From the sequence record PZ496580.1: 64,000 nt of DNA; one strand, 5' to 3'. The position numbers and the translations under genes were made by a program. Below the pieces are notes generated by a model. That model ran no database searches, was not told the DNA's origin, and was given only the letters and a program-made list of their open reading frames with translations. Origin of the DNA: a phage. Of this stretch, positions 34,802-50,697 are shown one piece after another; the first letter of the stretch is position 1; each line of letters opens with the position of its first letter.

Positions 34802-34837
34802 TTGATACTCCTTAGTAGTTCGTTTCGGTATGTGTGC

Positions 34838-34866
34838 ATTATAGGGGATCACCGATCCCCTGTCAA
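34838..34866 (-). promoter_or_regulatory. Early promoter cassette (PeSL-type): TTGACA-N17-TATAAT with palindromic spacer
   Basis: Minus strand reads TTGACAGGGGATCGGTGATCCCCTATAAT; spacer is a perfect inverted repeat. Confidence 0.7.
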
Positions 34867-34874
34867 CAACTTTT

Positions 34875-35393
34875 TTAGTTATTTTTTAATTGCTCATCTT
34901 GCAATAGGGCAATCACATGCTGGCGATGTTCTTCCGATTGAGGCACACCGAAAAAGTTTGTTTTGTAGAAATACTCTAATCGGTCTTCTCGTGTGCTCTC
35001 TTCCATCATGATCGCTGGTAGACCAAGATTGCGGAAACGTCGCTTTTCTGCTGGCGTAAAATCGCTGTAATACAGCATAGAATCATCATTACCAGCAATG
35101 CTAAACTCATCCTTCATGAAGGAGAATATTGCGTTTAAACGCTGTTTACCGTCCACGATTTCGATCTCATAGCGAGAGCCATCATCAATCTTAGCCATTG
35201 CGATAGCGCCTACCGGAAAATCATTAATCAGGTTTTCGATAAACATACGTTTGTTTTCTGTGTCCCATACCAAAGGACGCTGATAATCTGGGTTCATGTT
35301 GATATAGCCATCTTCTAACCATGCTTCGTAAACAGAGATGACAAAGTTTTTAGTATTGGTATAGTAACGGCGTTTAGGCGTTAAACGGTTCAT
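34875..35393 (-). CDS. DUF262 / ParB-like nuclease-domain protein
   Basis: DYQRPLVW...FPVGAI...IVDGKQRL matches the DUF262 (GmrSD N-terminal) signature. Confidence 0.6.
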   Translation of the reverse strand: MNRLTPKRRYYTNTKNFVISVYEAWLEDGYINMNPDYQRPLVWDTENKRMFIENLINDFPVGAIAMAKIDDGSRYEIEIVDGKQRLNAIFSFMKDEFSIAGNDDSMLYYSDFTPAEKRRFRNLGLPAIMMEESTREDRLEYFYKTNFFGVPQSEEHRQHVIALLQDEQLKNN

Positions 35394-35901: not shown

Positions 35902-36617
35902 TATAGATCCTTATTGGCTTCAAATACTGCCTTTGCGAATCCTCGCGGGGTAAGTGACCTGATAGTCTTTGTTCTGGTTCCTTTCCCGCCTAGCTTAGAA
36001 TGCTGTTTGCTGTACCCTTTATTAATCGGCAACGGTTTCTTTTCTGGCATTATAAAGCCTTGTCCGGTCCACAAGCAAGTCTTTTTCGGGTACATATCAC
36101 GGGAGGCAATATACTCAGGAAACGTAGGATGTATATCATCTTCCGGCAAATAACCGCCATATTCCCACGGATGGAACATGTAATCAGGCTTACGCCACAT
36201 GCTAGAGATAACGCTTACAGGATTCTCTATCATGTAGGGAACTCCTAGCCATTCACCCAAATAAGCGGTTATTTTAGCTGCCCTTACATCATGAATTTGA
36301 ATTAATGGTCCTTGCTCTCGTTTCTTTCGTTCAAAGTGTGCAGCGCCACTAACAGCTAAATTGGTGCATGGTGGGAATGCAAATATAATATCCGGTTTCC
36401 CCCATTCAAGGTCCATTGCTCTTTCCAGCCAGTTCAAATCAATCCATGTGTTTACATAGGTAATGTTTGGATGTTCAAATCGGGTATTATATTTTTTGTA
36501 TGTACCGTGGTCGCCATCGTCAGCATTAAAGCAGATCACCTTATGACCTGCTTTAGCCCATTCTAGCCCCATTATCCCCGATCCGTCAAAGTTGCAGAAT
36601 ATTAATTTTTGTTTCAT
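35901..36617 (-). CDS. Minimal C5-cytosine methyltransferase-like protein (238 aa)
   Basis: Motif I-like FDGSGIMG, motif IV DIIFAFPPC, motif VI ENP, motif IX-like RSLTPRG; no room for a target-recognition domain. Confidence 0.55.
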   Translation of the reverse strand: MKQKLIFCNFDGSGIMGLEWAKAGHKVICFNADDGDHGTYKKYNTRFEHPNITYVNTWIDLNWLERAMDLEWGKPDIIFAFPPCTNLAVSGAAHFERKKREQGPLIQIHDVRAAKITAYLGEWLGVPYMIENPVSVISSMWRKPDYMFHPWEYGGYLPEDDIHPTFPEYIASRDMYPKKTCLWTGQGFIMPEKKPLPINKGYSKQHSKLGGKGTRTKTIRSLTPRGFAKAVFEANKDL

Positions 36618-36859
36618 ATACGCCCCTTTAACCCAACACAGATTTTAGAAGGTTCTTTACCGTGCCACATTAAGTAAAGTCCGTTAGTGCGGCCTTGTTT
36701 TGTATATGATTCTTTTCTAATCTTCTTATAGTGTCGTGCTTCCTCAACCGATTGTTTAGAATACCAATCATAAAGGAAGATGAACAAAGGCCAACCATTA
36801 GCGGCCTTAATGCAGTTATTAAGAAATTCCTTATTGCGTTTAATTAATTTTCTTTTCAC
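36614..36859 (-). CDS. Hypothetical basic protein (81 aa)
   Basis: Probable GTG start overlapping upstream stop; hydrophobic core segment. Confidence 0.35.
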   Translation of the reverse strand: MKRKLIKRNKEFLNNCIKAANGWPLFIFLYDWYSKQSVEEARHYKKIRKESYTKQGRTNGLYLMWHGKEPSKICVGLKGRI

Positions 36860-37107: not shown

Positions 37108-37147
37108 TGTTTGATTCTCCTAAGTAGTATCTCGTCTTGATGTGTGT

Positions 37148-37176
37148 ATTATAGGGGATGGTGTCTCCCCTGTCAA
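37148..37176 (-). promoter_or_regulatory. Early promoter cassette (PeSL-type)
   Basis: TTGACA-GGGGAGACACCATCCCC-TATAAT on minus strand. Confidence 0.7.
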
Positions 37177-37190
37177 CACTTTTTATAAAA

Positions 37191-37358
37191 TTATTTGTTA
37201 ATTTCCGGTGCGTTGCTCGGATAGTAACCTTCTTTAACTCCGAGGTATTTCGCAACCATCCCTACAATCTTCTGTGCTACTACAATGTCAAATTTCAGAT
37301 AATCTTCGCCGTGGGTTTCAATGATATATGCTTCACATGCTGCTTTAGTCTCGAACAT
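37191..37358 (-). CDS. Small protein (55 aa), paralog of 40945-41112
   Basis: MFETKAACEAYIIETHGEDYLKFDIVVAQKIVGMVAKYLGVKEGYYPSNAPEINK; about 85 percent identical to the copy at 40945-41112. Confidence 0.45.
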   Translation of the reverse strand: MFETKAACEAYIIETHGEDYLKFDIVVAQKIVGMVAKYLGVKEGYYPSNAPEINK

Positions 37359-37391
37359 TTTGATTCTCCTATTTCGTTTCGGTATGTGTGT

Positions 37392-37421
37392 ATTATAGGG
37401 GATCTCCCGATCCCCGTCAAC
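37392..37421 (-). promoter_or_regulatory. Early promoter cassette (PeSL-type)
   Basis: GTTGAC-GGGGATCGGGAGATCCCC-TATAAT. Confidence 0.65.
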
Positions 37422-37434
37422 AACTTTTTTAAAA

Positions 37435-37716
37435 TTATTCGTGATTAGTTTCGATATTGTACATTTTGCACCAGTTCAGCCAATCGCCCAGATCTTGATA
37501 GTTGATGCTTTTATCTGCTGCCATAGTTTTTGTCTTGATACCCATATGTGCGTTATGAGTAAGCATTTTTACAGTGAACTCGATTTTATCGCCTTTAGCT
37601 TTAACATCAACCAGTTTGGTCCACTGGCTACCAGCGCCGCGAATGTTCATACCAACGATGTTTCCGATGTATGCTTCTTTGTTTTTCAGGATTTCGGTTG
37701 CTTTGATGAATTTCAT
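37435..37716 (-). CDS. Hypothetical protein (93 aa)
   Basis: ORF behind promoter cassette 37750-37778. Confidence 0.5.
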   Translation of the reverse strand: MKFIKATEILKNKEAYIGNIVGMNIRGAGSQWTKLVDVKAKGDKIEFTVKMLTHNAHMGIKTKTMAADKSINYQDLGDWLNWCKMYNIETNHE

Positions 37717-37749
37717 TTTTGATTCTCCAGTTCGTTTCGGTATGTGTGT

Positions 37750-37778
37750 ATTATGCTATGTTCTTACTTTGGTGTCAA
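37750..37778 (-). promoter_or_regulatory. Early promoter cassette (variant, -10 CATAAT)
   Basis: TTGACA-N17-CATAAT plus conserved UTR ACCGAAACGAACTGGAGAATCAAAA. Confidence 0.6.
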
Positions 37779-37786
37779 CAACTTTT

Positions 37787-38056
37787 TTAGATATTTTCAG
37801 AAATAAATTTTAAAACTTGACGTAAATGTTTCTCATCTTTGATAGTCGCCGGAAGTTCTTCTTTTACTTCCTGTGCAAGATAGATATTTCCGTTCCAAGT
37901 GAAAGATCCGTCTTCGTTTACGCGATAGCTGAACATCCACTCGCAATCATTTTCGATTTCATATACACACAGAAGGGTGTAATCATTAAAGCTGTTGATT
38001 TCAAGGTCGAGGCCGTGACGTTTTGCAAAGTTGGTAGTGGTTTTAGTCAATGCCAT
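37787..38056 (-). CDS. Hypothetical protein (89 aa)
   Basis: ORF behind promoter cassette 38097-38125. Confidence 0.5.
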   Translation of the reverse strand: MALTKTTTNFAKRHGLDLEINSFNDYTLLCVYEIENDCEWMFSYRVNEDGSFTWNGNIYLAQEVKEELPATIKDEKHLRQVLKFISENI

Positions 38057-38096
38057 TGTTTGATTCTCCTAAGTGGTATCTCGTTTCGATAGGTGT

Positions 38097-38125
38097 ATTA
38101 TGATATAGGCGTGATCTGGTGTCAA
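38097..38125 (-). promoter_or_regulatory. Early promoter cassette (variant)
   Basis: TTGACA-N17-CATAAT. Confidence 0.6.
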
Positions 38126-38145
38126 CAACTTTTTTAAAATTTAGG

Positions 38146-38172
38146 CAATAAAAAGCCGACACTAAGGTCGGC
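38146..38172 (-). terminator. Terminator GCCGACCTTAGTGTCGGC plus TTTTTATT
   Basis: Hairpin plus T-run; duplicated at 38653-38679. Confidence 0.6.
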
Positions 38173-38565: not shown

Positions 38566-38598
38566 CTTTATTTCCCTCAATCTCGTTTCGATGGGTGT

Positions 38599-38627
38599 AT
38601 TATGCTATAGGCGTGATCTGGTGTCAA
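38599..38627 (-). promoter_or_regulatory. Early promoter cassette (variant)
   Basis: TTGACA-N17-CATAAT. Confidence 0.6.
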
Positions 38628-38652
38628 TGCCTTTTTTTTTAAAAATTTTATG

Positions 38653-38679
38653 CAATAAAAAGCCGACACTAAGGTCGGC
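38653..38679 (-). terminator. Terminator GCCGACCTTAGTGTCGGC plus T-run
   Basis: Copy of 38146-38172. Confidence 0.6.
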
Positions 38680-38687
38680 TAATAAAA

Positions 38688-38997
38688 TCATTTAGACAAA
38701 TAATCATTCTGTGCAATCCGGTCGGCGTATGCTGGTGTTATGTCAATCGCCAGCACTTTAACGCGTGCTTTCTTGCGACCTGAGTTTTCTCGTAACCAGT
38801 GCTCATGACCGTGAACATTTTTATACTTTGATGCTGTTTCGAAAGTACGGATCGGACCTGGGTAATCAGCGTAAAGGATCTCTAGGTCTTCGGTGATGTA
38901 AAAATATACATCATAATTACTGTTCTCTAGTTTAAGCAGAGAGTTGCGTAATTGTGGTAAATTCTCGCGGGTAAATTCAACTACAAGATTTTTCATA
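38688..38997 (-). CDS. Small protein, HxHW family member A (102 aa)
   Basis: C-terminal GHEHW...VKVLAIDI signature shared with four or five other ORFs; start at MKNLVV. Confidence 0.5.
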
Positions 38998-39019
38998 GTG
39001 ATATCCTCATTCAGATAGA

Positions 39020-39040
39020 TTAAAAGGGGCTTAACGCCCC
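39020..39040 (-). terminator. Terminator GGGGCGTTAAGCCCC plus T-run
   Basis: Same hairpin as 34562-34587. Confidence 0.5.
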
Positions 39041-39045
39041 ATATA

Positions 39046-39333
39046 TTAAAACAGTCCTTCCTGTACACCGTAGTAGAGTTCATCGCTGATAATTTCATTA
39101 ATGCGACGGTGTGCATATTCCTGATTTGCGAAGTTGTCAGCAAGTTCTACTTTAGTTTCGCCGTCATGAGTCCATTTAGTGATAACTTTACCATCTGCAA
39201 ATTTGAAGTTGAACTCTTTAGCTACTGCATCGCGTACCAGACGTGCAAACTTGTTGTTACGGATTGCATTATCGGTCTCGTGTGCAGCGTGAGCAAATTT
39301 GTTAACTTTCAGCGTGATAGTGATGTATGCCAT
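39046..39333 (-). CDS. Hypothetical protein (95 aa)
   Basis: ORF behind promoter cassette 39374-39402. Confidence 0.5.
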   Translation of the reverse strand: MAYITITLKVNKFAHAAHETDNAIRNNKFARLVRDAVAKEFNFKFADGKVITKWTHDGETKVELADNFANQEYAHRRINEIISDELYYGVQEGLF

Positions 39334-39373
39334 TGTTTGATTCTCCTAAGTGGTATCTCGTTTCGATGGGTGT

Positions 39374-39402
39374 ATTATGCTATACACCCGATCTTATGTC
39401 AA
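39374..39402 (-). promoter_or_regulatory. Early promoter cassette (variant)
   Basis: TTGACA-N17-CATAAT. Confidence 0.6.
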
Positions 39403-39407
39403 CACTT

Positions 39408-39686
39408 TTATAAAATAATTTTTTGATATTTTTCTATGATGTTTGAGTAGGTCACATCAACCGCTAGCACCGTTGCTTCGAATCCACCGTCTAGCCAATG
39501 GCTATGGTCATGATCGTGAAAGAAACCAAGACCAGTACGAAGACCTTCTTTATATTCGGCGCGTACATTCAGTTTGTCGTCGATAAACAGATAAAACCAT
39601 GAATTTTTACTAGGATTGATGATACAACCTTTCAGATTAGGGAGAATATCACGACTAAGAATAAACTTATCACCTACTTTGAACAT
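39408..39686 (-). CDS. Small protein, HxHW family member B (92 aa)
   Basis: FYLFIDDK ... HDHDHSHW ... TVLAVDV; SD GAGGA. Confidence 0.5.
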   Translation of the reverse strand: MFKVGDKFILSRDILPNLKGCIINPSKNSWFYLFIDDKLNVRAEYKEGLRTGLGFFHDHDHSHWLDGGFEATVLAVDVTYSNIIEKYQKIIL

Positions 39687-39709
39687 AATATTGTCCTCAC
39701 TTATAAAGT

Positions 39710-40009
39710 TTAACTGTTGTTTTTCTCGTAATGCTGCATACGTGCTTGATCTGCTTCCGCTGGTGATAGATTCCATGCGATCACTACAACTTCTGACGCA
39801 TCATGATCATTATCACTTACCCAATGATTATGATTCATACAATTGTTTGCTATCGCGTGAGCAAATGATCTCATTACAGGAGACGTATAATCATAGTAAC
39901 GGATTTTCAGATTTTCATCAACGTACAAATAGATCGTATAAGGTTTATATTCAGTAACCAGTAACAGACAGTTACGCAATTCTGGGAAAATCTTTTTAGT
40001 TAATTTCAT
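39710..40009 (-). CDS. Small protein, HxHW family member C (99 aa)
   Basis: YLYVDENL ... NHNHW ... VVVIAWNL. Confidence 0.5.
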   Translation of the reverse strand: MKLTKKIFPELRNCLLLVTEYKPYTIYLYVDENLKIRYYDYTSPVMRSFAHAIANNCMNHNHWVSDNDHDASEVVVIAWNLSPAEADQARMQHYEKNNS

Positions 40010-40211
40010 ATTCTAGTTCTCCGTAATACACGGTAATCCATTTTTCTTCATACTTTGTATCTTTCCAGCACACAATCCCGTTTACTGCGCAATCTTTGGA
40101 ATTGACGAATGATTCATATTGTTCTGCATCTTCCATCATTGCATGAGCGGTCTTTTCATCGAATATATCGCAGATCGCTTTATATGCTCGATAATCTTTA
40201 AATTTGCTCAT
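39996..40211 (-). CDS. Small protein, MSKFKDY family copy 1 (71 aa)
   Basis: MSKFKDYRAYKAICDIFDEKTAHAMMEDAEQ; tandem paralog of 40214-40423. Confidence 0.45.
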   Translation of the reverse strand: MSKFKDYRAYKAICDIFDEKTAHAMMEDAEQYESFVNSKDCAVNGIVCWKDTKYEEKWITVYYGELEYEIN

Positions 40212-40213
40212 AA

Positions 40214-40423
40214 TTAACACCATTCAAGAGTTTTTGAAAACACGTCTATCCATTGTTGAGTGTAGCATGTTTCTTTCCATGATACAATACGAGTAGAATA
40301 ATGGTTTTTGTTTCCAGAAAAGGACGGGCATTTTGATGCATCTTCCATCATCTTTTCGGCGAACTCTGGTTCGTATACCCGCAGGATCTGTTGATATGCT
40401 TTATAATCTTTAAATTTGCTCAT
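40214..40423 (-). CDS. Small protein, MSKFKDY family copy 2 (69 aa)
   Basis: MSKFKDYKAYQQILRVYEPEFAEKMMEDASK. Confidence 0.45.
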   Translation of the reverse strand: MSKFKDYKAYQQILRVYEPEFAEKMMEDASKCPSFSGNKNHYSTRIVSWKETCYTQQWIDVFSKTLEWC

Positions 40424-40688
40424 AATTGTTAACTACCTTATCAGCTTCTTTTATTGTTTTTACATCAACTGCGATAATCCGTAAAGGTTCGTCGAAGGTC
40501 CACCAATGATCGTGAATATCAGCTTGTGATTTATCACCAAAGGAATCACGAATATCATTTTTACATTTATAGCTAATATGGCCTTCATAGTCAACATAAA
40601 GGTAATTATCGAAAATCGGCGTTTTTAAGATCATACCGAAAAATCTTTCTTTGTGTGTCTTATCCAGCGTTGCAGTAATTCGCATCAT
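40410..40688 (-). CDS. Small protein, HxHW family member D (92 aa)
   Basis: YLYVDYEG ... DIHDHWW ... RIIAVDV. Confidence 0.5.
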   Translation of the reverse strand: MMRITATLDKTHKERFFGMILKTPIFDNYLYVDYEGHISYKCKNDIRDSFGDKSQADIHDHWWTFDEPLRIIAVDVKTIKEADKVVNNYEQI

Positions 40689-40700
40689 AATATATTCCTC

Positions 40701-40880
40701 TTAGAAAGGGATGGTCATTTCTTGAGCTTGTACATTCTCATTAGGATTAAACTTCATCCAGCCGATATTGTCTACCAGCATATGCACATTTTTATCATAT
40801 CCTACGTGGGTAGTCAATACTGTATGTGCTTTACCTTCAATTATGAGTTCCATGTACTTCTGAACTTCGATAGCTTTCAT
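40701..40880 (-). CDS. Small ORF (59 aa)
   Basis: MKAIEVQKYMELIIEGKAH...; ATG after promoter cassette 40913-40941; below track cutoff. Confidence 0.35.
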   Translation of the reverse strand: MKAIEVQKYMELIIEGKAHTVLTTHVGYDKNVHMLVDNIGWMKFNPNENVQAQEMTIPF

Positions 40881-40912
40881 TTTGATTCTCCGTTTGTTGT
40901 CTTGATGGGAGT

Positions 40913-40941
40913 ATCTTACTACTCCCTTTAATCATTGTCAA
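40913..40941 (-). promoter_or_regulatory. Early promoter cassette (variant, stem-loop overlapping -10 TAAGAT)
   Basis: TTGACA-N17-TAAGAT with GGGAGTAGTAAGATACTCCC palindrome. Confidence 0.5.
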
Positions 40942-40944
40942 CTA

Positions 40945-41112
40945 TTATTTGTTAATTTCTGGTGCGTTGCTCGGATAGTAACCTTCTTTAACACCCAGAT
41001 ATTTTGCAACCATTCCGGTGATCTTCTGTGCTACTACGATATCGAATTTCAGGTAGTCTTCACCGTGGTTTGCTACAATGTATGCTTCGCATTCTGCTTT
41101 AGTCTGGAACAT
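40945..41112 (-). CDS. Small protein (55 aa), paralog of 37191-37358
   Basis: MFQTKAECEAYIVANHGEDYLKFDIVVAQKITGMVAKYLGVKEGYYPSNAPEINK. Confidence 0.45.
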   Translation of the reverse strand: MFQTKAECEAYIVANHGEDYLKFDIVVAQKITGMVAKYLGVKEGYYPSNAPEINK

Positions 41113-41147
41113 TTTTTGATTCTCCTATATCTCGTTGGTATGTGTGC

Positions 41148-41176
41148 ATTATAGGGGATCACCGATCCCCTGTCAA
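41148..41176 (-). promoter_or_regulatory. Early promoter cassette (PeSL-type)
   Basis: Core is a reverse-complement copy of 34838-34866 (spacer GGGGATCGGTGATCCCC). Confidence 0.7.
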
Positions 41177-41181
41177 CAACT

Positions 41182-41475
41182 TTATAATGCTTTATATGCG
41201 TATTTCATAAATTTGTCTGCCACTTCATTGGCATGTTCAGCTTCTACGCCTGATTCGAGAACAATAGCTAGGTCGGTTTCGTCATTCCCGCCGTACCAAT
41301 GATTTGATGTTCGATTTTTTTCAATTGGAAATTGGTCACTTTTATCTGTGCGACAAAATACATCTAAATGCTCGTCGATGTAAAAGATCCAATCTTCATA
41401 AAGAATAACGGTATTAGCCAGATTTTTATTGCCTTCAACGAAAGGTTCGGCTACAAACAAATTAGTATGTTCCAT
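41182..41475 (-). CDS. Small protein, divergent HxHW-family member F (97 aa)
   Basis: ILYEDWIFYIDEHLD ... NHWYGG ... LAIVLE; start at MEHTNL with SD GAGGAA. Confidence 0.4.
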   Translation of the reverse strand: MEHTNLFVAEPFVEGNKNLANTVILYEDWIFYIDEHLDVFCRTDKSDQFPIEKNRTSNHWYGGNDETDLAIVLESGVEAEHANEVADKFMKYAYKAL

Positions 41476-41491
41476 AACAATTTCCTCAAAA

Positions 41492-41683
41492 TTATACAAC
41501 TTCGTAAACTTCCCAATGTTCAGCGCCAGCACGCTTAACGAAAAGGTTTTCTTTGATGTTATTCATAAACGTATGAATGGATTTAATGCGGTTGGAAGGT
41601 TTCCAGTCTTCGTTAGCATTGCGGCGATACATTATAACATTACCAGATCGCTTATATTCAGCAACCATTTTAAGACCACACAT
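41492..41683 (-). CDS. Hypothetical basic protein (63 aa)
   Basis: ORF with SD GAGGAT. Confidence 0.4.
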   Translation of the reverse strand: MCGLKMVAEYKRSGNVIMYRRNANEDWKPSNRIKSIHTFMNNIKENLFVKRAGAEHWEVYEVV

Positions 41684-41740
41684 AATATTATCCTCAATTT
41701 GTGGGAGAGTATTACCCCTCCCGATGTTTGTTATATTACA

Positions 41741-42061
41741 TTACACAAAATGGCGTGTCAATGCTTCTTTTGCTGTTCCGCTAAGACTTTCGATCTCGCC
41801 TGGCATAACATCAACTGCCAGAACTTCTACAACATCCTCGGACCCTAACCAGTGAGTATGACCTTTGTAGAACTTGATGACCAGACTACCTTCCTCGTCC
41901 CATTTAACGCTATCGCTAGCCCACCACACATCACCGTCGATAAAGTTGATGTAAAGCACACTACGCCACATTGAATTAATTACTTTCAATACTGCGCCTT
42001 TCATCTCTTCCACGGTATGGTCTTCCATTTTGAAGACCTCACCTACCTGAACTTTTGCCAT
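41741..42061 (-). CDS. Small protein, HxHW family member E (106 aa)
   Basis: VLYINFIDGD ... KGHTHW ... VEVLAVDV. Confidence 0.5.
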   Translation of the reverse strand: MAKVQVGEVFKMEDHTVEEMKGAVLKVINSMWRSVLYINFIDGDVWWASDSVKWDEEGSLVIKFYKGHTHWLGSEDVVEVLAVDVMPGEIESLSGTAKEALTRHFV

Positions 42062-42081: not shown

Positions 42082-42261
42082 TTACATTACGATCACGCCA
42101 GCCGTTGAAAGTTGATGTTTCAACTGAGCATTTTCTGCTACCGTCAAATCAATGATTTCTTGTGACGCTGCAATCATATAGCCATTGGTGATATTGTTTT
42201 GCATCAGTTCAATGGTTTCTTCGTTGTAGCGGATTTTAGCGATGATTTCGTTGAAGTTCAT
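42082..42261 (-). CDS. Hypothetical protein (59 aa)
   Basis: ATG behind promoter cassette 42296-42324. Confidence 0.4.
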   Translation of the reverse strand: MNFNEIIAKIRYNEETIELMQNNITNGYMIAASQEIIDLTVAENAQLKHQLSTAGVIVM

Positions 42262-42295
42262 AATTGATTCTCCTAGTTCGTTTCGGTATGTGTGT

Positions 42296-42324
42296 AGTAT
42301 AGGGGATCGGTGATCCCCTGTCAA
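42296..42324 (-). promoter_or_regulatory. Early promoter cassette (PeSL-type)
   Basis: TTGACA-GGGGATCACCGATCCCC-TATACT. Confidence 0.65.
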
Positions 42325-42337
42325 CAACTTTTTTGAA

Positions 42338-42814
42338 TTATTTTTCTTGATGCTCGCGCTCGTACTTTTCGAAATAAAATTCTACTGGCTGGTCGTGGAT
42401 TGAAAGCAAGCCAAAGCGTTTAGCCGCTCGTAATCCCATATTGCGCTGAATGTACTTCTGGAAGTTCTCGCGTATACACTTACGCCAGTATTCTAAGCCC
42501 ATACAGCTTTTATAAAGATTGCATTGCACACATGCCGGATTCATGTTATCAAGTATATCATGCTCCGGTTTATGCATTCCTACAACCTTATACTTCCACG
42601 ATCCATCATCGTTACGGGAAATGCGCCCATTTTCATCATAGACTACTTTTGAGCGTCGTAATACTGGTTTGATATGATCCGCGTGCCAGCGTTCTCCTAG
42701 TACCTCTCCGCAATAGGCACAACGTCCACCGTATTTCATTTTCAGGATCTGGCGTTGCTCTTTCTTTGACAATTTTTTAGGTTTAGGGGCTTTCGCCCCT
42801 TCATTATCACACAT
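42338..42814 (-). CDS. HNH endonuclease
   Basis: CAYCG...HADHIKP...NMNPACVQCN HNH motif; overlaps the ligase 3' end by 8 nt. Confidence 0.7.
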   Translation of the reverse strand: MCDNEGAKAPKPKKLSKKEQRQILKMKYGGRCAYCGEVLGERWHADHIKPVLRRSKVVYDENGRISRNDDGSWKYKVVGMHKPEHDILDNMNPACVQCNLYKSCMGLEYWRKCIRENFQKYIQRNMGLRAAKRFGLLSIHDQPVEFYFEKYEREHQEK

Positions 42815-44309
42815 CGAATACCTCTTTTACTGTATTTGCAGTGGTCTTGTCGTAGCGAATACGTTTGATGATCGGGAGAAATAAAGAGAACTCCGGTTCA
42901 TCTTCTTTACGTGATTTGCTGCGGATATACCCGTTGCATGTCATCTCAATGACTTTTCCGATCAGGTTATGACGGTCAGCCCATAACATTTCTCGGTCAA
43001 GTTCATTTCGACGATCGAACGGAATTACACGTTCAATACCATCATCACCTTTTTCGGTTGTGGTGTCGGTCAATCCCGATCCGGTGTTAGTCATCATTCG
43101 TCCGCACGCACTACGGACAGTAAAACCGCCTACCTTATTAGGATCTTTACTATGCGGATATACATCAACAATTTCCGCGTCGAAGTCAATCACTTCTTTA
43201 AATTTAACCTGATCTTTACTGCGACGATCTTCAAATACACCATGTAAATTTTTAAGGATAATACCTTCTAAGCCCATGTTTACATAGCGATGATATACTT
43301 CGCGAGCTTCATCTATATTGTTAACTACAGTGTTTTCGATTATCTGAACACGAGGATCGTTAAGTTCTTCAACAATCTGTTTTAGTTCTTCGAATCGATC
43401 TTTATATTGCTTCGTTGCTTTCTCGTTTCCGTAATACACATCACGGTCGATAACATCCCAGACAGTGTAAACAATACATTGGGCTTCTTCTTTTGGAATA
43501 GTTCCTTTCAGTGATTTGTTGAGGATGCCATTTCCGGTCTGACGATCTGCAACAACGGATTCTTTCACTGCTTCCGCTACTGGCGTTAATGGCATTTCCT
43601 CTTCTTCAAATATCCATGACAGAGTACCGTCATAAACGCTCTCAACGAAGTTCTGCGCTGGTGTTTGCGAAAGGGTAGGCATATATACCAATTCGCCATC
43701 TAGAACAATTCCACGTCCTCGTAGACGCTCTAAAACCGCAAACAAATCATCAAGCCCCTGATAGGTATTACCTGAACGGGTATAGATTGCTAATGTTTCC
43801 CCGTCAATATCAGCCATACCACGAGCGCCATCGCTTTTAAGTTGTGCATATGCAGGATATTTGATATTAGCAATGGCCTTATCAGAATATGACGATGCAA
43901 GGTGGCACGGTTGCTGGGGGATCAGTTTCTTCCATACCTTGTTTGCAGTGGTAGCGGAACAACCGCATTCCAGGTCACGATTCAGGACCATCATTGCAAC
44001 TTTAGCATCATCTTCTGACAAGCAAGTCAGAGTATCGGTAACTAGCTGTAATGCTGCATTGCCAGTTACTTGACGTGTGGCAAGTTTATTTTTAAAGACT
44101 TGTAATGCACCGGATAAAGACAATACAGACGAATATCGCGATGGTTTATCGTATTTCTTTACGCCAAACGTAACCTGTTTGCAATATGCCAGATAAAAGC
44201 ATTCTTTCAGAGTGTCATTGCTTGCTGATTCTTTCAGGATCTTTTCTTTCAGCGATGTTTTGTCTGTTGCTGCAAGCTGATTAATGATATTAAGAATTGA
44301 CATTTTCAC
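42807..44309 (-). CDS. 30: ATP-dependent DNA ligase (gp30)
   Basis: 500 aa; adenylation motif AQLKSDGAR and overall similarity to T4 ligase. Confidence 0.9.
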   Translation of the reverse strand: MKMSILNIINQLAATDKTSLKEKILKESASNDTLKECFYLAYCKQVTFGVKKYDKPSRYSSVLSLSGALQVFKNKLATRQVTGNAALQLVTDTLTCLSEDDAKVAMMVLNRDLECGCSATTANKVWKKLIPQQPCHLASSYSDKAIANIKYPAYAQLKSDGARGMADIDGETLAIYTRSGNTYQGLDDLFAVLERLRGRGIVLDGELVYMPTLSQTPAQNFVESVYDGTLSWIFEEEEMPLTPVAEAVKESVVADRQTGNGILNKSLKGTIPKEEAQCIVYTVWDVIDRDVYYGNEKATKQYKDRFEELKQIVEELNDPRVQIIENTVVNNIDEAREVYHRYVNMGLEGIILKNLHGVFEDRRSKDQVKFKEVIDFDAEIVDVYPHSKDPNKVGGFTVRSACGRMMTNTGSGLTDTTTEKGDDGIERVIPFDRRNELDREMLWADRHNLIGKVIEMTCNGYIRSKSRKEDEPEFSLFLPIIKRIRYDKTTANTVKEVFDV

Positions 44310-50120: not shown

Positions 50121-50161
50121 CTTGATACTCCTTAGTAAGTGTGTTTCGTTTCGATGGGGGT

Positions 50162-50190
50162 ATATTACTACCCCCGTTTCATGCTGTCAA
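50162..50190 (-). promoter_or_regulatory. Early promoter cassette (variant, -10 TAATAT)
   Basis: TTGACA-N17-TAATAT with GGGGGTAGTAATATACCCCC palindrome. Confidence 0.55.
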
Positions 50191-50409
50191 CTACTTTTTA
50201 ATGACAAGTTCGAATTTTGCTACCTTACGTCCTCGTTTATTGAAAGCAACCCACGGACGGTTTTCAATGTAGAACAATTCTTCACCAATAATGAATACTG
50301 GCTGATTGTAAAGGCGACCCATCAGGTCACGCTGGCGAATGGTAGTAGATTCGTATACTTCGCCTACTACAAAGTGTTTGCTGATAGAGTCGGTGCAGAT
50401 AAATTTCAT
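50191..50409 (-). CDS. Hypothetical protein (72 aa)
   Basis: ORF behind promoter cassette 50443-50471. Confidence 0.45.
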   Translation of the reverse strand: MKFICTDSISKHFVVGEVYESTTIRQRDLMGRLYNQPVFIIGEELFYIENRPWVAFNKRGRKVAKFELVIKK

Positions 50410-50442
50410 TTTGATTCTCCTTTGTTTCGTTTCGATGGGAGT

Positions 50443-50471
50443 ATCTTACTACCCCCGTTATTCAGTGTCAA
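50443..50471 (-). promoter_or_regulatory. Early promoter cassette (variant, -10 TAAGAT)
   Basis: TTGACA-N17-TAAGAT with palindrome across the -10. Confidence 0.5.
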
Positions 50472-50478
50472 CTACTTT

Positions 50479-50697
50479 TTACTTGTTGTATTCATTCCAC
50501 CATTGGGTTAACTTATCAATTATTTTTGTGTTTCTATCCAACTTATCCCACCGTTTTCGAGGGTTTATCAACCGGAATAGGTAAGGTGTACTTGTTAAGT
50601 GAACTCGGTCAATATAGTGATTGATGTACTGCTTTTCGATTCTAAGTTTCATCTTTTTACGATGAAAATATGCAATGACTTGTTCTTCTGTTTCCAT
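50479..50697 (-). CDS. Hypothetical basic protein (72 aa)
   Basis: ORF behind promoter cassette 50722-50750. Confidence 0.45.
   Translation of the reverse strand: METEEQVIAYFHRKKMKLRIEKQYINHYIDRVHLTSTPYLFRLINPRKRWDKLDRNTKIIDKLTQWWNEYNK

Follow-up and report, generated by a model that had tools for sequence, protein, structure and literature searches.

The closest described counterparts of the genes reported here are the ORFans flanked by PeSL cassettes in the phages RB49 and phi1 (Arbiol et al., 2010, PMC2839356; Comeau et al., 2014, PMC4122927), and both promoter and terminator activities of these cassettes have been measured (Arbiol et al., 2010). The 64,000-nucleotide (nt) stretch of phage DNA analyzed in this study (record PZ496580.1; hereafter the window) is from a Krischvirus genome (RB49/ECD7-like, a T4-like coliphage) and shares with those ORFans the genus, the gp30-alt region, and the cassettes. 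Whereas Arbiol et al. (2010) dealt with the cassettes and with gene shuffling, the subject here is the proteins: six small minus-strand open reading frames (ORFs A to F) between positions 38688 and 42061, which, judged by profile comparison, are a single paralogous family. A term search of PMC2839356 found neither the six corresponding RB49 ORF numbers nor the word "paralog," and in the literature searched on these ORFs, on Krischvirus anti-defence and on paralogue families, only the two PeSL papers proved relevant.

Each of the six ORFs encodes 92-106 amino acids (aa) and begins with its own ATG, preceded 6-9 nt upstream by a GAGG/GGAG Shine-Dalgarno sequence (Table 1). A model that had seen only the nucleotide sequence and its ORF translations (the original prediction) had grouped five ORFs of shared architecture with a more divergent sixth, F, and both a MAFFT alignment and profile-profile comparison agree with this grouping. 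The H-x-H-W motif occupies the same alignment columns throughout, and the Y(L/F)YID-like strand toward the N-terminus is in register as well. The VLAVDV-like strand on the C-terminal side of the motif is also in register, but its spacing varies from 8 to 13 residues instead of the constant 12 or so that had been proposed. The motif had been expected in each copy, which holds for A-E but not for F of the window; there, as in the RB49 and ECD7 copies, Ser replaces the first His (SNHW), although the gene is otherwise intact and conserved, and most F orthologues of other genomes have THNHW. The proposed coordinates were correct for five of the ORFs, whereas A runs to 38996 and not to 38997, a difference of one base.

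The pattern H.HW occurs five times in the 28,011 residues of window ORFs of at least 40 aa, against 0.19 expected, and every occurrence is in the family. A family hidden Markov model (HMM) matched exactly six window ORFs (E 1e-23 to 4e-30); these six proteins were in its own training alignment, and the informative part of this result is that no other ORF scored better than E 0.84. By BLASTP, only A and C are clearly paralogous (6e-13) and the remaining pairs are weak. In hhalign comparisons, a profile of A and C matched B at 8e-9, E at 2e-7, and F at 1.5e-7; D matched the A/C profile weakly (7e-4), whereas a broader D profile aligned with all non-D members at 1e-12 and a probability of 97.8%. 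By these comparisons F is a true, more divergent member of the family. In the PHROGs database, each window protein matches one family (E 1e-48 to 1e-72), with all five families concerned labelled "unknown function." PHROGs 9345, 17255, 15972, 16486, and 15965 stand as separate families there, whereas profile-profile and model comparisons unite them here and bring a further, sixth group, typified by EpJSE_00215 of phage JSE, into the same superfamily.

The AlphaFold2 models indicate a common compact fold of five predicted beta-strands and a C-terminal helix, with H-x-H-W placed between strands 4 and 5. For B, modelled from a 36-sequence family alignment (predicted local distance difference test [pLDDT] 89.2, predicted template modelling score [pTM] 0.83), the model consists of a strand at residues 7-9, a helix at 12-18, strands at 21-25, 31-35, and 41-45, short helices at 53-56 and 62-67, a strand at 70-75, and a helix at 83-91. 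The HW of the motif opens the short helix 62-67, and VLAVD forms the strand 70-75. The model of F (pLDDT 85.5, pTM 0.81) has the same strand order and C-terminal helix as that of B. The predicted fold is loosely SH3/KOW-like: SH3-like and KOW barrels (Spt5 KOW, eL14, mS34, Sm) likewise have five short strands and a connection before the last strand, but the structural matches are weak. Foldseek returned nothing below E 0.7 from the PDB; against BFVD, the significant matches (E up to 0.001) were Krischvirus proteins only, with a template modelling (TM) score of ~0.7 among family models, followed by the 88-aa JSE protein (E 0.024) and a few actinophage proteins (E 0.02-0.14).

Across the six window subfamilies, the second motif His and the Trp are the only invariant residues. 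The first motif His and a Tyr of strand 3 occur in 90% of members or more, and strand 5, which is hydrophobic (VLAVDV), is constant throughout the family. Within subfamilies, substitutions concentrate at the N-terminus, in the loop before H-x-H-W, at the residues just after it, and at the start of the last helix, whereas the strands and the motif are without change. The six ORFs are real genes under purifying selection. Pairwise comparison of intact orthologues between the window and six related genomes gave ratios of nonsynonymous to synonymous substitution rates (dN/dS) of ~0-0.4 for all six genes, against 0.01-0.07 for the ligase gene and 0.03-0.12 for the methyltransferase gene, so that selection is purifying but more relaxed.

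The original prediction could assign no named domain, and scans of Pfam, PHROGs, and NCBIfam likewise gave no named family. Nothing exceeded the Pfam threshold in scans of the six window proteins and of 32 members, and the NCBIfam scan had no match. A sequence-profile search of the PDB reached at best E 0.19 (1yb3) with one profile and returned none with a broader profile. Clear homology to a T4 small-protein family, or a motif out of register, had been named as outcomes that would speak against the family; the motif is in register, and the T4 homology was rejected. Among 380 ORFs from the early and accessory regions of T4 (positions 1-80,000 and 119,000-168,903), the family HMM reached at best E 0.17 and H.HW was absent; the Pfam T4 families gave no match above noise, and tblastn found the family only in Krischvirus (see below). 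Readings of the His motif as that of HIT proteins or carbonic anhydrases were rejected for reasons of size, absent motifs, and fold. Alpha-carbonic anhydrases carry HFHW, so the H-x-H-W string itself is alike, but their fold and size differ and there is no profile or fold match. We found no convincing sequence or structural relative outside the family.

About 5 kb around the locus match 59 phage records at 92-95% identity, all of them Krischvirus or Krischvirus-like (RB49, Phi1, JSE, ECD7, JK32, and others), and the genes under this segment in those records are all "hypothetical protein" save an HNH endonuclease and the DNA ligase gp30. The locus lies between gp30.3/gp30 (DNA ligase) and alt in ECD7, RB49, and one metagenomic genome; this gp30-alt stretch is the hyperplastic region reported for RB49/phi1 (Arbiol et al., 2010). 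A tblastn search of 50,697 phage records, with the metagenomic relatives P0093 and P0098 as queries and with a further query of the six window proteins joined together, found the family in the 59 Krischvirus records only and in all 59 of them, the best match per record covering two to six of the six joined segments. Among 5.8 billion proteins, a word-indexed search gave 88 matches in six subfamilies, with the longest carrier contigs at ~150-176 kb; a second word-indexed search with the family gave 29 matches, and a third, with the 88-aa JSE protein as query, gave five. The source label of one word-search match names Spt5 KOW. HMMER, run exhaustively against 1.84 billion representatives, returned just 20 clusters at E of at most 1e-3 (68-203 aa), which supplied more distant relatives for every subfamily, and in IMG/VR an F-type profile found no more than two contigs. 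The contigs of distant relatives are mostly 1-2 kb long and therefore offer little gene context. The family is accordingly genus-restricted, paralogous, and tandemly dispersed. It is also accessory in nature, with variable copy number and some copies that are pseudogenes: frameshifts were found in A and F of JSE, in A of kvi, and in B of a viral metagenome contig from IMG/VR.

One metagenomic contig of 2.1 kb carries, consecutively, an E-like gene, the fusion P0090 with its two domains, and genes of D-like and then C-like type, which indicates that the array is older than the cultured genus. P0090 (L002 823-1434; 203 aa) consists of two tandem family domains, both nearest to B and both with HNHW, and is known from this single assembly. 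Another metagenomic relative encodes a 266-aa in-frame fusion of two domains of the 70-aa type with a C-type domain (L005 300-1100), and on a further contig an ORF of the 70-aa type lies directly upstream of a C/A-like gene (L003 95-331). A seventh subfamily, typified by the 88-aa JSE protein EpJSE_00215 (L011 3854-4120), is encoded directly upstream of E in JSE and was not found in the window. An hhalign comparison (3e-7, probability 93%) and the resemblance of the models (TM 0.61) tie it to the family, and it has GNGHL where the others have H-x-H-W, so that of the motif it keeps the second His alone. A Salmonella prophage has a 97-aa relative (L015/L016 10001-10294) as its final gene, beside chromosomal genes.

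The original prediction had called these proteins early, and sigma-70-type early promoter cassettes are indeed predicted upstream. Near-consensus TTGACA-17-TATAAT sites on the coding strand recur through the region inside repeats of 60-90 nt, and some cassettes have a GGGGATC...GATCCCC stem between the hexamers. These cassettes match the PeSL of RB49/phi1 in sequence, and their promoter function in the window is predicted from that likeness. The T4-type late-promoter box TATAAATA was not found between 36.5 and 44.5 kb. Sigma-70 cassettes together with the missing late box make early expression likely; for A this is conditional, since it lies behind the hairpin at 39026-39040 with no promoter match of its own and its expression would need read-through. 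Stop and start codons overlap along D, the two paralogous 70-aa ORFs, and C. The six genes thus have the marks of PeSL-associated ORFans of hyperplastic regions, namely the location, an upstream sigma-70 consensus promoter that carries a stem-loop, and a lack of homologues beyond the group.

We tentatively read the family as a stable scaffold fold that was diversified by duplication into a panel of binders, and give this reading somewhat less than an even chance. Each paralogue would recognize a different host (or phage) partner via its variable N-terminus and the variable loop before the motif, and the invariant His, usually with the His two residues upstream, would form the common contact, possibly via a small ligand or a metal ion. 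Such a panel would serve host takeover or counter-defence early in infection, and would be non-essential. The proteins may pair as dimers or join the small proteins that are co-translated beside them in complexes, as P0090, the 266-aa fusion, and the overlapping codons of D, the 70-aa ORFs, and C together hint. The far-reaching form of this proposal seems unlikely, though not negligibly so: a new fold and scaffold with a His-based metal or ligand contact, expanded in Krischvirus phages to six or seven specificities that neutralize several host targets at once, whether of defence or of housekeeping, as a multi-target counter-defence array acting as homo- or hetero-oligomers with those co-translated neighbours. 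Several points weigh against a binder panel. The literature searched offers no partner, ligand, phenotype, or transcript and does not mention the ORFs; A, which lacks a promoter match, stands behind a terminator-like hairpin; each fusion occurs in a single metagenomic contig and might have arisen through misassembly or a frameshift error; where the His lies relative to the variable loops is deduced from predicted secondary structure; and dN/dS of at most 0.4 gives, at the level of whole genes, no arms-race signal.

The motif invites a reading as a metal site. In small metalloproteins, the H-x-H and conserved carboxylates, supplied by the Asp of YID, by that of VLAVD, or by the acidic loop that follows the Trp, might bind Zn, Ni, or Fe, with the site in one chain or formed by two H-x-H at a dimer interface, and with a structural, minimal catalytic, or sequestering function. 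We consider this unlikely but credible. The invariance of the second His and near-constancy of the first are as expected of ligands, as are the HDHDHSHW run in B, the acidic residues that usually follow the motif, and the retention of HNHW in both halves of P0090; however, the first His is Ser in F of the window and deleted in the relatives P0089/P0102, while F orthologues are still under purifying selection, and the seventh subfamily has GNGHL. The candidate carboxylate columns, moreover, vary between D, N, T, and G, neither a Cys nor a further His is conserved, and no known metal-site fold was matched. That the proteins are fragments or minimal versions of a known metalloenzyme, either a calcineurin-like phosphoesterase (GHxH) or a JAMM/MPN metalloprotease (HxH), is effectively refuted. 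GHEHW and GHTHW do resemble the last phosphoesterase motif, as the original prediction had remarked of GHTHW, but no Pfam Metallophos match appeared in the six proteins or in the 32 members, even at E up to 5. Metallophos domains have five ordered motifs (DxH, GDxxDRG, GNHE, H, GHxH) over ~200 aa or more, whereas the window proteins have 92-106 aa, the GHxH-like string alone occurs, and only in A and E, and the beta-alpha-beta-alpha-beta sandwich fold is absent. B has a sub-threshold Pfam match to the MPN-like PROCT (E 0.0025; 18.2 bits vs the 23.6-bit cut-off), yet neither the E...HxHx7Sx2D motif of JAMM nor an MPN fold was found. With both enzyme groups the likeness ends at the local H-x-H string; folds and sizes differ, the companion motifs are missing, and neither profiles nor folds matched. 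H-x-H-W might instead be purely structural, as a helix cap with a buried Trp in a conserved fold that has no common site, its paralogues doing different things or little. This is rather unlikely; there are few invariant residues, some of them at core-type positions (Tyr, Trp, the hydrophobic strand), the seventh (G) subfamily lacks the Trp and the first His yet keeps the fold, and the motif region of the F model is a lower-confidence loop, but a His invariant over seven subfamilies that are ~20-25% identical would be unusual for a purely structural role at a solvent-exposed loop position, and variable positions flank it.

Oligomers of these ~90-aa proteins could be sponges for small-molecule immune signals, in the manner of Tad2, Tad1, and Acb2, and sequester nucleotide second messengers by His/Trp stacking, which we regard as improbable. 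Tad2 (DUF2829) itself was rejected, as neither its sequence profile nor its fold was recognized, and Tad2/DUF2829, AcrIIA7, and type VI immunity proteins show no significant structural or sequence similarity to the family. We know of no six-copy array in a single genome for any of these three groups. The proteins could also be KOW/Sm-like barrels that bind RNA and thereby modulate transcription or translation in the host; this is very improbable, and the predicted proteins are soluble and neutral to acidic, with isoelectric points of 4.5-7.9 that argue against nucleic-acid binding. Finally, the genes might be functionless passengers of PeSL-mediated shuffling, kept by recombination between promoter cassettes. 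Their place in a PeSL-rich hyperplastic region (PMC2839356), the variable copy number, and the pseudogenes are what such passengers would show, but dN/dS is well under 1 in all six genes, and subfamilies only ~25% identical are each kept genus-wide and in distant metagenomic relatives, in the same gene order, which leaves this explanation distinctly improbable.

The neighbourhood of the array holds further repeated elements and small ORFs (Table 1). The two copies of a 55-aa ORF (phrog_8009) are 85% identical over 172 nt, and each lies directly behind a 12/12 consensus cassette; the pair looks like a duplicated promoter-plus-gene module. A 43-nt element composed of an A/T-rich stretch, a GC hairpin, and a T run is likewise duplicated (91% identical), and both copies are terminator-like, one standing after A and one after the next gene block. 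For the 95-aa ORF that precedes A (phrog_7474), dN is at most 0.004 despite dS of 0.09-0.24 in all five related genomes with a match, a constraint far above that of its neighbours. The 158-aa HNH endonuclease ORF, labelled after the ECD7 and JK32 annotation and probably a homing endonuclease, shares 8 nt with the DNA ligase gene at the 3' end of the latter. An 81-aa ORF (MKRKLIKRNKEFL...) adjoins the DNA methyltransferase gene, and a relative of it (L004 39-326) shares a short metagenomic contig with an F-like gene, which suggests that distant relatives have more of the region in common.

Table 1. Coordinates of the paralogues and of predicted elements and ORFs around them in the window (motif residues are numbered in the protein).
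Feature	Position	Strand	Length	RB49 type	PHROG	Particulars
Paralogue A	38688-38996	minus	102 aa	ORF197c	phrog_9345	HEHW 38796-38807 (residues 64-67); VLAIDI 38739-38756
Paralogue B	39408-39686	minus	92 aa	ORF199c	phrog_17255	HDHDHSHW, HSHW 39495-39506 (residues 61-64); VLAVDV 39453-39470
Paralogue C	39710-40009	minus	99 aa	ORF200c	phrog_9345	HNHW 39821-39832 (residues 60-63); VIAWNL 39767-39784
Paralogue D	40410-40688	minus	92 aa	ORF203c	phrog_15972	HDHW 40503-40514 (residues 59-62); IIAVDV 40461-40478
Paralogue E	41741-42061	minus	106 aa	ORF208c	phrog_16486	HTHW 41849-41860 (residues 68-71); VLAVDV 41807-41824
Paralogue F	41182-41475	minus	97 aa	ORF206c	phrog_15965	SNHW 41296-41307 (residues 57-60); VLESGV strand 41245-41262
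PeSL early promoter	42296-42324	minus				TTGACA-GGGGATCaccGATCCCC-TATACT; stem-loop between hexamers; predicted to drive 59-aa ORF 42082-42261 and E
Weaker sigma-70-like site	41733-41761	minus				10/12 consensus; within 3' end of E; upstream of 63-aa ORF 41492-41683 and F
Sigma-70-like cassette	40913-40941	minus				10/12 consensus; heads 59-aa ORF 40701-40880, D, two 70-aa ORFs, C, and B
Sigma-70-like cassette	39374-39402	minus				11/12 consensus; upstream of 95-aa ORF and A
Terminator-like hairpin	39026-39040	minus				between 95-aa ORF and A
Terminator-like hairpin	38661-38680	minus				directly 3' of A; end of array
First repeat type	34816-34887, 37126-37197, 37370-37441, 37728-37799, 41126-41197, 42274-42345	minus				intergenic; near-consensus sigma-70 promoter with GGGGATC/GATCCCC stem
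Second repeat type	38077-38135, 38579-38637, 39354-39412, 40893-40951, 50142-50200, 50423-50481	minus				intergenic; near-consensus sigma-70 promoter
Two paralogous ORFs	40214-40423, 39996-40223	minus	~70 aa		phrog_8471	MSKFKDY...; between D and C
ORF, two copies	37191-37358, 40945-41112	minus	55 aa		phrog_8009	
Duplicated element	38130-38172, 38637-38679		43 nt			
ORF upstream of A	39046-39333	minus	95 aa		phrog_7474	
HNH endonuclease ORF	42338-42814	minus	158 aa			
DNA ligase gene	42807-44309					
ORF beside methyltransferase gene	36614-36859	minus	81 aa			

T4-like phages contain large early-gene blocks of unknown function, which have been a recurrent source of host-takeover and anti-defence functions. 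The present family is a new one among the known PeSL-flanked accessory ORFans of T4-type hyperplastic regions, with no unusual mechanism apparent. Six "hypothetical proteins" from five PHROGs become one defined superfamily with a structural model, invariant residues, and subfamily boundaries, and the family is directly testable, with pseudogene and fusion variants and a genus-wide distribution also at hand. If its members are not a panel of inhibitors, they would make up another accessory gene family confined to its lineage, as is ordinarily the case; if they are, they would represent an unusual breadth of counter-defence attained through paralogue expansion in one phage genome.

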